The notes under the pieces are model-generated. The model ran no database searches. It was not told the DNA's origin and saw only the letters and a program-made list of their open reading frames with translations. Positions 51,101-57,256 of a stretch of DNA of 64,000 nucleotides are shown here, one piece after another (the stretch's first letter is position 1; each line of letters begins with the position of its first letter). This DNA comes from Candidatus Tectimicrobiota bacterium (GTDB lineage Bacteria; JACPUC01), in contig JACPUC010000009.1 of the NCBI GenBank assembly GCA_016192455.1, forward strand, positions 1 through 64,000. Direction: 5' to 3'. A program made the position numbers and the translations under genes.

Positions 51101-53851
51101 TCACACCGCGTACACCTTCAATACCTCGTCGCCGTAATGGTTGATGACCTTGATGGCGATCTTGCCGGTCTCCGGGGGGTCGAAGGGGCGGCTGGTGGTG
51201 CTGTAGAGGCTGGCCCAGGCGGCCTCGTCGATCTCCGCGCGCAGGGCGCGTTTCAGCTTGTCGTACGGCTCCTCGGCGCCGGTGAAGTAGGCGTGCCGCA
51301 CGAAGAAGCTCTCCTCGTCGTAGTTGGTGTCGATGAACCAGCAGGCGATGTCGTCGGTCGAGGAGGTGCGAATCTGCCCCGTGGTCGGGTCGTAGACATC
51401 CAGGCCCTTGATCGCAACGACGAACTGATCCGCGGATTTCACAGATTCGCGCAGATTTCTCTTATCTGTGGTCATCTGCGTCATCTGTGGATGAATTCTC
51501 CGAATTTCCACGTCCGGCTCGCCGAAGACCATGAAGAGGTTGGCGGCGCCGCTCTTCTTCAGCAGCTCCTCCCCCATCATCAGGTCGGGGTTCATGCGCG
51601 TCACCAGCACCGTCAGGTCGCCGTAGCGTTTCGCCTCCTCGGAGACGTGCGGGTCGAAGGCGAAGCCGCACACCACCAGCACGTCGAATCGCACCCCCTG
51701 CAGCGCCTCCTTCGCCGCCTCGTGGATGTGCTCCGCTCCCACCGTGCCGTGCTCGGGGCCGATGGAGACGGCCACGCGCTTGCTGGCGCCGTCACTGCCG
51801 GCGTACTCCCCGGCGGCCTGCAGCCAGCGGCCGGCGAACGGCTCCAGGCGCTCGAAGCGCAGGCGCTCGGCCTTGCGGGTGTTCTGCACGCCGGCCTTCT
51901 TGAGGTTGTCCAGGATCATAACGGCGAAATCATCCACGGATTTCACAGATGAACGCCGATAATTCTTAGGGGTATCCGCAGATTGCACAGATGAACACAG
52001 ATGGGTTGAACCCTTCTTCTTCTCATCGGTGTCCTCCGTGGATAACGTTCTGTGCGGCGACAGGCTCTCGACGGTGAACGGCCCGGCGACGCGCGCCCGC
52101 GAGCTGTCTGGGTACGGCTGGTCGTAGAGGGTCTCCTGATCGGCGTGGCGGGTAATGGCGGCGTCGATCTCGGCGCGCGTCATCCCCTCGCGGATGTCGG
52201 GGTTGTTGGCGATGGATTTCAGCGTCACGTGCGGCACGCGCTTGTAGACGAACCCCTTGCGGATGTCGGGAAGGGAGCTATCCACAGAGGACACAGAAGG
52301 CACAGATTTTCGCAGATAGTTTTTGATCTCTTCATCTGTGTTCATCGGTGTAATCTGTGGATAGGCATCGGCGAGGTAATAGTAGGGATATTTAGCGGCC
52401 ATCAGGCGCGTGCGCGCCAGGGCCAGGGCCACGCGGCTGGTGTCGATGGTGATCCAGCGCCGCCCCCATTGCTCGGCGACGTAGGCCGTCGTGCCGCTGC
52501 CGCAGGTGGGGTCCAACACGAGGTCGCCGGGGTCGGTGGTCATGAGGAGGCAGCGGGAAACGACATCGGTATTTGTTTGAACTGCATAAATCTTCGCCTC
52601 TCCGAAACCGCCTGCACGCACATCATCCCAGTAATTCGATATTCTTACTACCGGATAGTCATCCGCAAACATTTTGTAACGAAGATACTTGCCAGAGACA
52701 ATAAGCCTATTTGCAGTTTCTAACTTTCGCATTCCCTCTTTAGTAGTTCGCCAGTAATATCCAGGTAACGGGCTAAACTTGTACCCTTGAAATTCGTAGA
52801 TAAAATGTGTTGTCTTTCCACCACTGTCAGAATATATACTGCTTGGCATAAATCGCTTGCCTATAAGTTGATTTGATTCGAGGTTTTCTGAACGTGTTAG
52901 CCTTCTACATGATCCATCAATTGATTCGATCATTGTGTAAGCTGCTTCTATAGTGGTTGACTTCCGAAGGATATAAAGTGAACGAACCTTAGTATGTTCT
53001 GTAGACTTAGAATACCAAATAAGGTAATCACCCGAAGAATCTATATGACCACTGCCCTTACCAGTGGTTTTAAGAAAGAAAATCAGCCCGCAGAAATTCT
53101 CACTCCCAAACACCTCATCCATCAAACACCGCACGAGGTGCACATTCTCATCCCCAATCTGCACGAAGACGCTGCCCGTCTCCGTCAGCAGCTCGCGCGC
53201 CGCCACCAGCCTATCCCGCAGGTAGGCCAGGTAGGAGTGAATCCCCAGCTTCCAGGTGTCGCGGAAGGCCCTGATCTGTTCCGGCTCGCGGCTGGCGTCC
53301 TCGGCCTTGCCGTCTTTCACGTCGCGCTTGCGGGTGCTCACCTGCCAGTTGGAGCCGAACTTGATGCCGTAGGGGGGGTCGAGGTAGATCGTCTGCACCT
53401 TCCCCTTCAGCCCCTCCTTCTCCGCCAGGCTGGTCATGACGAGGAGCGAGTCGCCGAGGATCATGCGGTTCGACCAGTTGGCGTCGTACTGGTAGAACTC
53501 CACCTTCTTGTCGAACCCGTCGATGCCGTTGAAGTCGGCGAAGAGGTCGAGCTGCTCCTGTTTCGGTTTGCCGCCGCGCCGCCGCAGGTCCTCGATGAGC
53601 GCCTGGGGGTGAATCTTCTCCTGGATGTAGACCGGCGCCACCGGCACGGCGAGGTCTTCGCGGTCCTGCTCGTCTTTCCCCTTCCAGACGAGCTGCGGGT
53701 CAAGCGACGGGTCGCGCGGGTAGAGCATGGTTCGCGGCGCCGCCTCCTCCTCGGCCACGAAGCCGCGCAGCTCCTCGGTGGGGATGTTGCGCCGCTTGTC
53801 CTTGTGGCGCAGGGACTCGACACTGGTCATCCTGGTGTTCTTTTTGGCCAT
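51101..53851 (-). CDS. Type III-like DNA methyltransferase (Mod), beta-class, containing three in-frame palindrome clusters
   Basis: NRMILGDSL, YLDPPYGIKF, VLDPTCGSGTT, KVINHYGDE; repeat-derived peptides such as HPQMTQMTTD and NLRESVKSAD. Confidence 0.9.
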   Translation of the reverse strand: MAKKNTRMTSVESLRHKDKRRNIPTEELRGFVAEEEAAPRTMLYPRDPSLDPQLVWKGKDEQDREDLAVPVAPVYIQEKIHPQALIEDLRRRGGKPKQEQLDLFADFNGIDGFDKKVEFYQYDANWSNRMILGDSLLVMTSLAEKEGLKGKVQTIYLDPPYGIKFGSNWQVSTRKRDVKDGKAEDASREPEQIRAFRDTWKLGIHSYLAYLRDRLVAARELLTETGSVFVQIGDENVHLVRCLMDEVFGSENFCGLIFFLKTTGKGSGHIDSSGDYLIWYSKSTEHTKVRSLYILRKSTTIEAAYTMIESIDGSCRRLTRSENLESNQLIGKRFMPSSIYSDSGGKTTHFIYEFQGYKFSPLPGYYWRTTKEGMRKLETANRLIVSGKYLRYKMFADDYPVVRISNYWDDVRAGGFGEAKIYAVQTNTDVVSRCLLMTTDPGDLVLDPTCGSGTTAYVAEQWGRRWITIDTSRVALALARTRLMAAKYPYYYLADAYPQITPMNTDEEIKNYLRKSVPSVSSVDSSLPDIRKGFVYKRVPHVTLKSIANNPDIREGMTRAEIDAAITRHADQETLYDQPYPDSSRARVAGPFTVESLSPHRTLSTEDTDEKKKGSTHLCSSVQSADTPKNYRRSSVKSVDDFAVMILDNLKKAGVQNTRKAERLRFERLEPFAGRWLQAAGEYAGSDGASKRVAVSIGPEHGTVGAEHIHEAAKEALQGVRFDVLVVCGFAFDPHVSEEAKRYGDLTVLVTRMNPDLMMGEELLKKSGAANLFMVFGEPDVEIRRIHPQMTQMTTDKRNLRESVKSADQFVVAIKGLDVYDPTTGQIRTSSTDDIACWFIDTNYDEESFFVRHAYFTGAEEPYDKLKRALRAEIDEAAWASLYSTTSRPFDPPETGKIAIKVINHYGDEVLKVYAV
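51428..51492. repeat. CAGAT-arm inverted pair inside the methyltransferase
   Basis: atccgcggatttcacagattcgcgcagat ... atctgtggtcatctgcgtcatctgtggat. Confidence 0.9.
51932..52043. repeat. CAGAT-arm cluster (two direct arms, one shorter inverted arm) inside the methyltransferase
   Basis: 51932-51960 atccacggatttcacagatgaacgccgat; 51974-52002 atccgcagattgcacagatgaacacagat; 52025-52043 atcggtgtcctccgtggat. Confidence 0.9.
52279..52363. repeat. CAGAT-arm inverted pair inside the methyltransferase
   Basis: tatccacagaggacacagaaggcacagattttcgcagat ... atctgtgttcatcggtgtaatctgtggata. Confidence 0.9.
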
Positions 53852-53965
53852 GATTCAATCCGCCGATTGCGCCGATTTGCGCAGATTCAGGGACTCGACT
53901 TTGGTCGTCCTGGTGTTCTTTTTGGCCATGATTCAATCCGCCGATTGCGCAGATTTGCGCAGATT
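53810..53965. repeat. 78-bp tandem duplication (mod 5' end plus one CAGAT arm)
   Basis: 53810-53887 versus 53888-53965, 4 mismatches. Confidence 0.95.
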
Positions 53966-54361
53966 GGAGAATACAAAACGCCTAAATTCAAGACTCGGGC
54001 GGCCGAAGTTCAGCAGCAACCCGCGCTCCAGGCGTGTTGCCTTGAGGTAGTTCAAGAGCTGTGCTTCCTCGACGCCAGTGATGGCGTGCAGCGCCTTCAA
54101 CTCGATGATAACGCTTTCATAGCAGACAAAATCCGCCCGGTACGAGCAGGCCAGCGGCTGCTCCTTATAATACACCGGCAACTCCACTTCGCGCGCGAAC
54201 GGAATGGCTCGGACCGCGAATTCAATCGCGAGCGCCTGCTGGTAGACAGCCTCCAGGAATCCCGGGCCAAGTTCTCGATGAACCTCCATCGCCGCGCCGA
54301 TGACGGCGTGTGTTTGTTGGTCCTTTGAATCTGCGTCAATCTGCGAAATCCGCGGATTCAT
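53933..54361 (-). CDS. GxxExxY protein (PD-(D/E)XK nuclease fold) bounded by 31-bp inverted repeats
   Basis: VIGAAMEVHRELGPGFLEAVYQ, RADFV...IIELKA, QLLNYLKAT, GLLLNFG; inverted repeats at 53935-53965 and 54328-54358. Confidence 0.93.
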   Translation of the reverse strand: MNPRISQIDADSKDQQTHAVIGAAMEVHRELGPGFLEAVYQQALAIEFAVRAIPFAREVELPVYYKEQPLACSYRADFVCYESVIIELKALHAITGVEEAQLLNYLKATRLERGLLLNFGRPSLEFRRFVFSNLRKSAQSAD

Positions 54362-57256
54362 TTTTGCTCACCGATAAAGCCGCGGATGAGAGTTTGCGCG
54401 TTCCACGGGTCGGTGATCTCGATGAACGCCCAGCGCCCGAAGCCGCCGTGGTTGTTGACCGCCGGCGCCCACAGGTTGCGCGCCGTACTCACCTTCGCCT
54501 CCTTCTCGGCCCTTCGCTCACCCGTCACCTCGATGATGAGGTTCAGCAGGTCGTCCGGCCCGCGGCCGTCGTCGACGCGGGCGATGAAATCGGGATGGTA
54601 CTGCTTCTCCTCGTTGAAGAGCGTGTAGGGGATCGTGAAGCCGAGGTTCTGGTTCTTCACGTAGGCGGCGACCTCCTCCATCTCCTCCAGGCTCTCGGCC
54701 ATCTTCTGCTCCCAGGAGCCGGTGTCGGCCACCACGTGCGACACATGGCATTTGTCGGGGCGGGTGTCGTAGGTGCTGCGCCGCGTGGTGAAATCGACGT
54801 AGCGGGTCGAGCCGAGGGTGTCGTAGGGGTGCAGGATCGGCTTCAGGCGCGGCTCGCCGCCGGAGGAGGCAACGATGGCCCGGTAGACGCGGTCGGCGGC
54901 GTCGTGCGCCCACTCGACGAGCAGGAGGAGCTGCGGGAAGGTGTTGTCATGGCAGGTGACGCATTCATCCAGCCAACGCTTGGTGATGCCGAGCACCTGC
55001 GGGAAGAGCCAGGGCTTGTCGTTGCCGTCATCGTCGCGAAAGTATTTCTCCAGCGTCAGCTTTCCCAGAAGGAAGGCGACCTCGTTCATGCGCCTGCGCT
55101 TCAGGTCGTCCAGGGTGAGGATGACGGTCTCCCCCACGATAGGGGCGTTCTCGGTCTTCGTCGGCAGGTCGTGCGTGCTCAGGGTGAGGTTCGAGTCCTC
55201 CGTGAACATGGCGCTGAGGCGCTGCGTGGGCAGATCGTAGCGGTACCCGAGCAGGCGCGGGAAGGTGATCTCGCAGGCGATGCGCTCCTCCAGGGCGCGC
55301 ACGCGGGTGGTCTGCCGCCCCGGCTGCGGTCCCTTCGTTGAGCCGGAGCAGGGGATGAAATCGAAGGGGACGCCGTAGACCTCGGCATACTCCGGCTCGA
55401 AGCAGCCGTCGTCGTTCAGGGCGTAATCCATGCGGCGCAGCGCCCGGCCCACCACCTGCTCGCAGAGGAGCTGCGTGCCGAAGGCGCGCACGCCGAGGAT
55501 GTGGGTCACGGTGTTCGCGTCCCAGCCCTCGGTGAGCATGGAGACGCTGACCACGCAGCTTCTCGGGGTCGCGCCCCGGAAAGCGCTGGCGGTACTCCGC
55601 CTTGAACTCCTCGATCTCCCTGGCGGCGATCTTCTTGAACTCGGCGCTCATGCCCTCGCCGGATTCAAGCTGCTGGCTGTCCACGAGGATGGTGTTGGGA
55701 CGGCGCAGCCAGCCGCCGCGGCCGTCGTCGTTGCGGAAGAACTTCAGGTTGCCGGCTTGCACCAACGTCGTGTCCCCGAGCGGCTTTTCCCAGCCGGCGA
55801 TGTAGTCGAACACCAACTTCGAGACGTTCGTGTTGTTGCAGACGACGATGAAGACAGGCGGGGTGAGGTTCGTAGCCGTGGCCGTCGAGCTTGCTTCCCA
55901 CAGGCGGTAGTACTGCTCATAGTTGCCGTAGAGGCTTTGCAGCGCCCCTTCCAGCTCCTTGGGAAGCTGCGGTTCGCCCACCACCGCCTCGGTCTTGCGG
56001 CCTTTGCGAGGCAGGTGTTCGCGGATCCGCGGCCAGAGGTTGCGGTAGGTGGGCTGCTCGCCAATCATGGAGTCATCCGCCACCGGCACGCGCGGCACCT
56101 TGACGATGCCTGATTCGATGGCGTCGATGAGGGAAAAGTCCGAAACCACCCAGGGAAAGAGCGTCCCCTCCTTGTAGCCGGAGCCGCGCAGGAAGAAGGG
56201 GGTGGCCGAGAGGTCGTAGATGACCTTGGCGCCGAGTTTCGCCTTCACCGCCTCAAGGCCGGAAATCCAGACGCGCGCCTCCTCGTTGCGCGTCTCCGCT
56301 TCCCTGCGTTCGTCGCTGCTCAGTTTCTCCTCATCGGTTTCGGGACGGCGCCGGTAGCAATGGTGCGCCTCATCGTTGAGAACGACGATGTTCTTTTTGC
56401 CGCCGAGCTCGCGGCAGGCGCGCCGCACCATCTGCTGAGGCGTTTCGGTGAACGCTCCATCGGCGCCCTGGGCGAGAATCGCCTTGGTGAGTTTGCCGGC
56501 GGCGACCTTCTCCCGCGGTTGGAAGGCGTGGAAGTTCGTGATGATGATCTTGGCCTGCTCCAGCCGTTCCATCTGGTGAGCCGGCAGGAGGTCCCACTGG
56601 CGGTAGTAGTTGTTGGGGTCGTTCGGCAGCAACACGCGCAGGCGGTCGCGCACGGTGATGCCGGGGGTGACGATGAGGAAGGTGTCGGAGAAGAGCTTAC
56701 CCTGGCGATCGGCCAGCTTGTTCAGCATGTGCCAGGCGATGAGCATGGCCATGACGACGGTCTTTCCGGTGCCGGTGGCCATCTTCATGGCGAGGCGCGG
56801 CAGGCCGGGGTTGGCCGCGTCGTTGGCGTCGCGCAGGTGGTTCGCAAGCCATTCGTCGCCGCACTTCGCCGCCGCCTCGGTGAGGTAGATGACCGTCTCA
56901 ACCGCCTCAATCTGGCAGAAGAAGAGCTTTGTATCGCGCTCGGGGTTGGTCCAGTACTTCAGCAGCTCGCGGGTCGTCGAGGTGATGCCGTGGTACTTCC
57001 CCCGCCGCCACAGGGCGACGCGCTCAGGGATGCGGTTGACGGTCTGGTTCTCTTCAAGACGGTCTTTCGTCCATTCGCCGTAGAGGTCGAGCTGCTTGCC
57101 GCGCTTCCTGGGCCGCGGCACCGGCACGAAGTAGGCGCTGCTGCGCCGTTCCTCGATGATCTCGTCGGTAATGCCGTCGTCGTCGAACTTGAAGTGGCGC
57201 CGCGGCTCCGCAAAGGGAGAGTTGAGGATGGGGTTTTCGATGACGACTGGAGGCAT
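54358..57256 (-). pseudogene. Type III-like restriction helicase-nuclease (Res), split by a deletion/frameshift at ~55558
   Basis: N-terminal part FFCQIEA, MATGTGKT, NDEAHHCY, DLSATP; C-terminal part CVVSVSMLTEGWD, QVVGRALRR, YHPDFI...EVTG in another frame. Confidence 0.88.

Follow-up and report, generated by a model that had tools for sequence, protein, structure and literature searches.

A GxxExxY nuclease gene nested between inverted arms of iterated units: a candidate small selfish mobile element in a res-mod operon

The window analyzed here is the whole of a 64,000-nucleotide stretch from a Candidatus Tectimicrobiota bacterium (contig JACPUC010000009.1, positions 1 to 64,000 of the forward strand). 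Within it, a gene for a small protein of the GxxExxY family lies in a Type III-like restriction-modification operon, where the order on the minus strand is res, the GxxExxY gene, and mod. The gene and the two inverted repeats in which it begins and ends (the arms) form a cassette that fills the res-mod spacer. The placement of the gene is that given in an initial annotation of the window: the stop codon of the upstream res open reading frame (ORF) overlaps the GxxExxY start as ATGA at 54358-54361, and mod follows downstream. The gene and its arms are the following.

53933..54361, (-) strand: GxxExxY / PDDEXK_3 nuclease gene, 142 aa, supported by translation, family scores, alignment, and a structure model.
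54328..54358, (-) strand: 5' arm, three units, core C-R-C-N-G-A-T-K, one member of the inverted-repeat pair (nhmmer E = 1.5e-7).
53935..53965, (+) strand: 3' arm, the inverted partner of the 5' arm (nhmmer E = 7e-8).

The claim that the gene runs from one 31-bp inverted repeat to the other was reproduced. The segment 53935-53965 matches the reverse complement of 54328-54358 over 31 nt at 27/31 positions (87%), and both protein termini are encoded by the arms, the protein starting with MNPRISQIDAD and finishing with NLRKSAQSAD*. The ATG of the gene abuts the outer end of the 5' arm, which codes for residues 2-11, and the 3' arm codes for the 10 C-terminal residues and contributes to the stop codon. 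Each arm consists of three 9-10-nt units, as had been described, and the units share the core C-R-C-N-G-A-T-K; invariant positions recur with a 9-10-nt period, and the positions between them vary freely. A chance origin of the arm pairing was rejected: local alignment of one flank to the other scores 42, whereas the maximum is 25 among 100 shuffles and 22 among 17 other places with this geometry, and the arm sequence has 2 matches in the window at ≤3 mismatches, compared with 0.00 expected (100 shuffles).

The assignment of the protein to the GxxExxY family was confirmed by profile scores. The 142-aa product scores 149 bits against TIGR04256 (GxxExxY; cut-off 35), and its sole Pfam match is PF13366 (PDDEXK_3; 4.1e-41, 140.5 bits versus a cut-off of 22). 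Across an alignment of 20 GxxExxY sequences, G34, E37, Y40, D77, and K89 are invariant and E87 is nearly so; the catalytic-type residues E37, D77, E87, and K89 are all present in the window's protein. The structure model (pLDDT 88.7) represents the arm-encoded C-terminal residues as disordered and the arm-encoded N terminus as the start of the first helix, at lower confidence. The top solved folds in Foldseek are Cas4 SSO0001 (E = 3e-4, TMq 0.52), followed by lambda exonuclease and RecE, and as modeled, the protein has a Cas4/RecB-like PD-(D/E)XK nuclease fold. A search of the PDB by sequence found no relative of the protein, and PADLOC assigned no defense family to it. Close relatives are abundant in a large protein collection, where 7963 of 8000 scored candidates reached E ≤ 1e-10. 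Among the matches listed (120 relatives), identity is 68-92%, and the arm-encoded ends are mostly covered too; the source names among these matches are Planctomycetota, Deltaproteobacteria, Desulfomonile, and Anaerolineae, and one relative with 76% identity is attributed to the cultured Desulfomonile tiedjei. The function of GxxExxY / PDDEXK_3 is given as "Unknown" in the accessible part of a 2012 survey of the superfamily (PMC3424549). Literature searches (supplements aside) for GxxExxY, PDDEXK_3, and TIGR04256/PF13366/IPR026350 yielded passing mentions only, and no paper linking GxxExxY to palindrome arms was found, in agreement with the suggestion that such a system is undescribed.

The extent of the unit was delimited with a metagenomic set of 80 close-relative loci, 78 of which have usable flanks. 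At least two forward units upstream and at least two reverse units downstream were found in 44/78 loci, units on one side in 21, and units on neither side in 13; among control windows, 31 and 27 of 1848 contain at least two units. When the window is compared with loci in other contexts, nucleotide similarity extends to about 43-44 nt before the conserved core and 36-37 nt after it, which are the outer ends of the arms (examples are L145, L146, L151, and L155); it continues for >80 nt beyond the core in only 33/694 locus pairs. Grouped by flank similarity, the 60 loci that have ≥300 nt on each side make up 40 context groups. With similarity ending at the outer arm ends in so many contexts, the initial claim that gene and arms make up one unit is upheld.

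Other loci document changes within this unit. L154 has a second cassette in which an internal deletion has removed the middle, leaving both arms and, from the 3' end of the gene, 79 nt. Two species of one genus, G209 and G041, carry an orthologous array of cassettes of another unit type (L128:1970-3560 versus L129:1960-2540), with CACAGAG-type arms and a conserved 29-nt linker, and the two arrays differ by two cassettes. Furthermore, in three related viral contigs (L137, L139, and L140; ~1300-2100) recovered by a scan with the window's protein as the single query, a GxxExxY cassette is located between the same two conserved genes, each time with a different unit. Free-standing homing genes are likewise carried by related phages at one intergenic site. 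That arms and gene constitute one mobile unit, present in many contexts, alongside gene-less palindromes, across phyla and into phages, is well supported. As a separate observation, one position of the G209 array holds ~790 nt of other cargo that, by eye, is a candidate nucleotidyltransferase/HEPN pair.

The association between gene and arms was examined across genomes. The GxxExxY family is represented in 11/40 other genomes, none of which is a close relative of the window's genome. The search for arms around GxxExxY homologs that the initial annotation had proposed gave a positive outcome: of 22 near-full gene copies, all collected by family search alone, 12 are flanked by inverted repeats that exceed every control, including 9 among the 19 copies from other genomes, and three further near-full copies have arms in other arrangements. 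The window's arm pattern is present in 23 of 400 other genomes, compared with 0/400 for a reversed control pattern, and the GxxExxY gene is present in 100/400. The expected co-occurrence of arms and gene was also observed: the gene was detected in 20/23 arm-bearing genomes versus 80/377 genomes without the arm pattern (Fisher 1.7e-10, counted without a true phylogenetic control). When the arm-bearing genomes are collapsed to 18 families, 16 of them with the gene, the value is 5e-9 against a background left uncollapsed at the genome level. On a tree of 31 proteins, the unit type (assigned by eye) changes 10 times, compared with a shuffled mean of 17.5, and 0/200 shuffles are as low. In each of four genomes (G036, G004, G209, and G041), two unit types coexist, and each goes with a separate protein clade. 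Thus, unit type tracks protein clade, so that the arms follow the protein and not the host genome.

The window's own genome (4.46 Mb, 31 contigs, 88% complete) contains 19 arms by a strict three-unit pattern, 29 by an IUPAC pattern, and 48 by profile search (E < 0.05). The gene-less copies claimed previously are present, with 13 tight hairpins that have loops of 1-6 nt (1 nt in 10/13); one further hairpin on contig C23 was mis-paired by the script. The short loops of these copies fall at the position that the gene occupies in the full cassette. The hairpins occupy spacers of co-directional genes, and 7/13 are in the gene spacers of one prophage-like stretch (21 kb) that forms the end of contig C23. 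Three GxxExxY genes were identified in this genome, all beside such arms. The copy on contig C27 (61% identical) has the same arm type in its flanks, and beyond it come two further arm pairs with an 8-nt linker between them; the copy on contig C3 (43% identical) is located between two complete hairpins of a variant unit. The 55-nt cargo of the short C27 cassette was examined for a deletion remnant of the gene, and none was significant (46 and 492 of 500 shuffles scored as high). There is no indication of recent cassette activity in this genome. The prophage-like stretch itself (C23, 284-305 kb; L111 and L112) encodes an endolysin, a tail protein, and a glycosyltransferase, carries a palindrome in almost every gene spacer, and also has one "inside-out" arm pair.

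The other features of the host operon are as follows.

54358..57256, (-) strand: res, BPTD_3080-family restriction subunit (NF046055), two ORFs with a break at ~55541-55560.
51101..53851, (-) strand: mod, Type III DNA methyltransferase, 916 aa, intact frame (PF01555; PADLOC MTase_III, 1.3e-266).
53810-53887 and 53888-53965, no strand assigned: 78-nt tandem duplication, two copies 95% identical.
53857..53887, (+) strand: second 3'-arm copy, gene-less, within the duplication (1 mismatch; nhmmer E = 1.5e-7).
53855..53929, (-) strand: putative 24-codon small ORF made by the duplication, read from the sequence.
52280..52362, (-) strand: site 1, gene-less palindrome in frame inside mod, from profile search and mod alignment.
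51932..52043, (-) strand: site 2, degenerate palindrome with an additional arm, in frame inside mod, from profile search and mod alignment.
51427..51492, (-) strand: site 3, gene-less palindrome in frame inside mod, from profile search and mod alignment.

Four other arm sites had been reported for the window, and all four are present (51427-51492, 51932-52043, 52280-52362, and 53857-53887), but they lie inside mod or at the mod start and are not spread over the 64 kb. Three points go beyond the earlier description: the 78-nt duplication, the broken res gene, and the in-frame translation of three arm sites in mod. One unit of the duplication comprises the 3' arm, then GAATC, and then the first 14 codons of mod. 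The putative 24-codon ORF has a mod-like start (MAKKNTR) and an arm-encoded end, with its stop 5 nt before the real mod start. In 4 runs, all from one study, a Logan contig of 95 nt (53843-53937) spans the junction of the duplication with zero differences; these runs may include the sample behind the window's assembly. No RNA run was among those listed as containing the stretch.

The Type III-like operon has an intact mod and a res in two pieces. The res gene is split over two overlapping ORFs that cover model positions 1-550 and 578-966, and compared with three homologs, it is short of ~18-20 codons just before the helicase "VVSVSMLTEGWD" block, with a change of frame, near 55541-55560. Because these codons are gone and the frame is changed, res is broken, unless the assembly is wrong there; with the same proviso, the operon may encode a methyltransferase with a dead nuclease. 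As for the palindromes inside mod, the site 1 segment is carried by 7/16 mod homologs, and 9/16 have a shorter, unrelated segment (as RNA, -34.5 kcal/mol, z -6.6). At site 2, a 13-residue insert is unique to the window's protein among the 16 aligned. The site 3 segment is carried by 8/16 homologs, with a short gap-like form in 6/16 and another kind in 2/16 (as RNA, -26.4 kcal/mol, z -3.5). The in-mod palindromes common to homologs were probably inherited with mod rather than inserted in the window's genome.

One of the 40 context groups comprises the window together with L141, L143, and L153, in all of which the cassette directly precedes a mod homolog. L141 also has res before the cassette, with the same ATGA overlap as in the window. 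Since these loci share the site, the insertion is common to a small set of related operons. In L141, an additional hairpin takes the place of the 78-nt duplication, so the junction between cassette and mod keeps changing. L161 is a probable further cassette-bearing res-mod relative on a metagenome contig. A possible mod remnant after the cassette of L144 (16-residue match, E = 0.009) was too weak to use.

The res-mod spacer was further surveyed in 80 related loci from species genomes (L031-L110), in 59 of which res could be placed. Loci without the gene, a point raised in the initial annotation, are found: the spacer is ≤100 nt in 21/59 loci. The remaining 38/59 have spacers of 220-2383 nt with varied cargo, including DUF5131, AAA_21 ATPase, GmrSD, Bro-N, nucleotidyltransferase (MNT), DUF433/PIN, Fic, AbiEii, DUF559, and YhcG nuclease. 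GxxExxY was found in 0/80 of these species-genome loci (tblastn), and metagenome contigs were the only source of res-mod relatives with the cassette (L141, L143, L153, and probably L161). Given this variety of cargo, the res-mod junction is a recurrent landing place for small selfish or defense genes, and the window's cassette is one such guest. As a side observation, the spacer of one locus from an uncultured Planctomycetota (L038:1700-2500) contains a 199-aa ORF with a weak IS200/Y1 match (PF01797, E = 5.8e-4), an HUH-like "HVHMV" motif, and GC-rich hairpin repeats on both sides. This looks like an element of the type formed by repetitive extragenic palindromic (REP) sequences and REP-associated tyrosine transposases (RAYTs), at the site held by the GxxExxY cassette in the window. 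Because a RAYT-like gene with its own hairpins is found there, the RAYT-type and GxxExxY elements are distinct.

Gene plus arms most likely represent a small selfish mobile element, and we found no published description of its kind. More specifically, we read the unit as a ~430-bp selfish cassette, with a PD-(D/E)XK gene nested between the halves of a palindrome, that was inserted in the res-mod spacer and is now inherited with the operon, and we place the probability of this reading at roughly one-half. The odds are about level that the iterated units are read by the nuclease, which would initiate the breaks through which the cassette is copied; any activity of the GxxExxY protein on the arms is something that we infer, set beside the observed anatomy, boundaries, contexts, co-occurrence, and clade tracking. 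Similarly balanced is the proposal that the gene-less palindromes represent the empty or non-autonomous form of the cassette, that is, its targets or non-autonomous partners. Under this mechanism, the nuclease would recognize the repeated units in both arms and break the DNA at or between the arms, and repair or recombination would then copy the gene into gene-less palindromes in a homing-like manner. More rarely, arm pairs would be placed at new sites, mostly gene junctions and tolerant protein loops, and internal deletion would also give rise to short derivatives. A broader version, in which each GxxExxY clade would read its own 7-10-bp unit, iterated in two inverted arms, and a lone nuclease would move itself along with gene-less palindromes to gene junctions, protein loops, phage genomes, and defense operons, with no DDE, HUH, or recombinase partner, making these a very large, overlooked group of cross-phylum miniature elements, is a tentative and rather unlikely extension.

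Several observations weigh against a selfish cassette driven by its nuclease. Inspection by eye of the 12 nt flanking each of the 13 tight hairpins at both ends revealed no target-site duplications. The three GxxExxY paralogs are just 43-61% identical, with no sign of recent movement, and the arms are ~84% alike, none being identical save one pair inside a larger duplication. No clean excision joint was found in the contigs of the 4 runs of one study; a joint from 53728 to 54619 in one run was disregarded because one side is only 21 nt and it does not represent a precise excision. Some close relatives (13/78) have no units on either side, and the arm pattern occurs without a detectable gene in G268, G296, and G387 (1, 3, and 7 arms, respectively). 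The best fold matches are end-processing exonucleases, at a TM score of about 0.5, and not sequence-specific endonucleases. The 400-genome co-occurrence lacks a true phylogenetic control, the unit-type labels were assigned by eye, and plain co-inheritance of the cassette would also produce both the co-occurrence and the clustering on the tree. Co-inheritance leaves unexplained, however, why cassettes diverge from one another but the six units within a single one remain alike.

A further point against the cassette reading is the RNA fold: the minimum-energy and centroid structures both show the arms paired, with the ORF enclosed between them and the AUG at the base of the stem (z -3.1; 1/100 shuffles folds as well). 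This is what would be expected of an RNA-level element, resembling an intervening sequence (IVS), in which RNase III would cut the arm stem around the ORF, or the stem would hide the start codon; the gene would be cargo that has a role in the cell, and spread would occur only by host recombination and horizontal transfer of whole loci. The gene-less hairpins also fold well as RNA (z from -3.5 to -9.4), and their location in spacers of co-directional genes fits the same explanation; Rfam returned, for three hairpin-rich loci, chance sub-threshold microRNA-type matches only. One parallel is the IVS in the 23S rRNA of Coxiella burnetii, which in the portion of the source available is a 428-nt, ORF-bearing element excised by RNase III and is described as selfish and horizontally acquired (PMC4990558). 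It resembles the window's cassette in its size of ~0.43 kb, its small ORF (S23p), and its inverted ends able to form a long stem. Unlike it, the window's element resides in a protein-coding operon and not in helix 25 or 45 of 23S rRNA, and its ORF is GxxExxY and not the S23p/PF05635 four-helix protein; a search of the window's genome for PF05635 gave no match. In addition, the window's arms consist of iterated units, and nothing points to selection for their pairing. Partner arms in the hairpins of the window's genome are 80.4% alike, compared with 84.0% for non-partner arms, so there is no extra complementarity, and their mismatches include 77 transversions, with 24 G-U-compatible changes on the sense and 31 on the antisense strand and hence no strand bias. 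Because partner arms are no better matched than others and G-U bias is lacking, the comparison favors arms that serve as a sequence motif, read by a protein in each arm, over a maintained hairpin. An RNA-level explanation also fails to account for arm types that track protein clades within one genome and for similarity that ends at the arm ends in 40 contexts. We consider it unlikely.

Comparably doubtful is the explanation that a different agent spreads the palindromes as a repeat family of their own, with GxxExxY a homing-type parasite of the palindrome center and not the mover of the palindromes. The 1-nt loop in 10/13 tight hairpins fits a defined empty site better than random deletion, there are ~48 arms to 3 genes, three genomes carry arms without the gene, and I-Ssp6803I is a known PD-(D/E)XK homing endonuclease whose target is pseudo-palindromic (PMC3384342). 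In the part of that report available, the I-Ssp6803I gene is, like the window's, a small PD-(D/E)XK gene amid a pseudo-palindrome that also exists uninterrupted. Unlike that system, the window's cassette involves no intron or intein, its presumed target is a dispersed repeat with many copies per genome, and the two proteins have no sequence relationship, the best folds here being Cas4 and lambda exonuclease rather than PvuII/Hjc. Such an explanation requires another agent, and the analysis turned up no enzyme to fill this role: integron integrase matches stay below the cut-off, and the sole RAYT-like gene met is in the locus of another genome (L038). Moreover, two arm types in one genome each keep their own protein clade, which points to a close tie between protein and arm, and the short form in L154 has arisen from a gene-bearing cassette.

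Integron-like cassettes, with the palindromes as attC-type sites used in trans by a tyrosine recombinase and GxxExxY as one of many cargoes, are highly improbable: tandem cassette arrays with short linkers (C27, G209/G041, and L154), the ~790 nt of other cargo at one G209 array position, and imperfect ~60-nt palindromes of attC-like size are compatible with them, but the best TIGR02249 match in the window's genome (88% complete) scores 84.7 bits versus a cut-off of 265, the gene is located between two arms and not beside a whole palindrome, an arrangement that recombination at the stem base would not give, and the arms are arrays of one repeated unit, not the R/L boxes carried by attC sites.

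The selfish cassette can also be set against known systems of dispersed repeats. The initial annotation had proposed an analog of REP/RAYT. The analogy holds for the layout, a gene between inverted repeats with gene-less copies dispersed, and fails for membership, because the window's protein is of the PD-(D/E)XK type (PF13366) and not an HUH Y1 transposase (PF01797); the resemblance is therefore one of layout only. In REPIN/RAYT, as far as the available parts of the two reports describe, a small gene is likewise found between inverted copies of a short repeat (PMC3337134, PMC3116915). The same parts describe a repeat dispersed as gene-less inverted doublets with short spacers, mostly intergenic, with few genes and many repeats, as here. 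The differences extend to the repeat: REP is a single hairpin with a GTAG/CGTC head, whereas the window's arms are three iterated 9-10-nt units, and gene-less copies here are found in frame inside genes as well and number in the tens, compared with hundreds for REP. Unlike insertion sequences and the miniature inverted-repeat transposable elements related to them, the 13 tight hairpins have no target-site duplications, and the internal deletion typical of such pairs has one clear case, L154, in another organism. Finally, the Rickettsia palindromic elements (RPEs) are, in the accessible text, palindromic repeats in frame in genes and translated as an extra peptide, as are the three mod sites here (PMC10969869). 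By that account, RPEs measure ~150 bp and belong to Rickettsia, whereas the elements here measure 60-110 bp, consist of iterated units, and have a nuclease-carrying full form; the text available reports no gene-bearing form associated with RPEs (PMC10969869).

If the nuclease-driven cassette is real, it would be the first transposon-like system driven by a lone PD-(D/E)XK nuclease, a new enzyme class among DNA movers. It would also provide a function for a family present in a quarter of the sampled bacterial genomes (100/400) and would explain together thousands of "hypothetical" small genes and many intergenic and in-frame palindromes. Nucleases with long, modular, repeat-based recognition sites would become available as well. 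For genome annotation, arms of this type are a source of false extensions at protein N and C termini, of small ORFs, and of odd peptide inserts in real genes; the window's methyltransferase has three such inserts.

Two minor observations concern the repeats of the window's genome. The palindromes at C1:320221-320281 and C1:326029-326089 are inverted copies of each other, flanks included; since the flanks were copied too, the pair is part of a larger inverted duplication, ~6 kb apart. A second, GC-rich palindrome of ~22 nt (GGGGCGG...CCGCCCC type) adjoins solitary arms at C1:277000-277030, C24:25125-25150, and C30:1180-1205, and at two of these three places it is situated 3' of paralogous genes.

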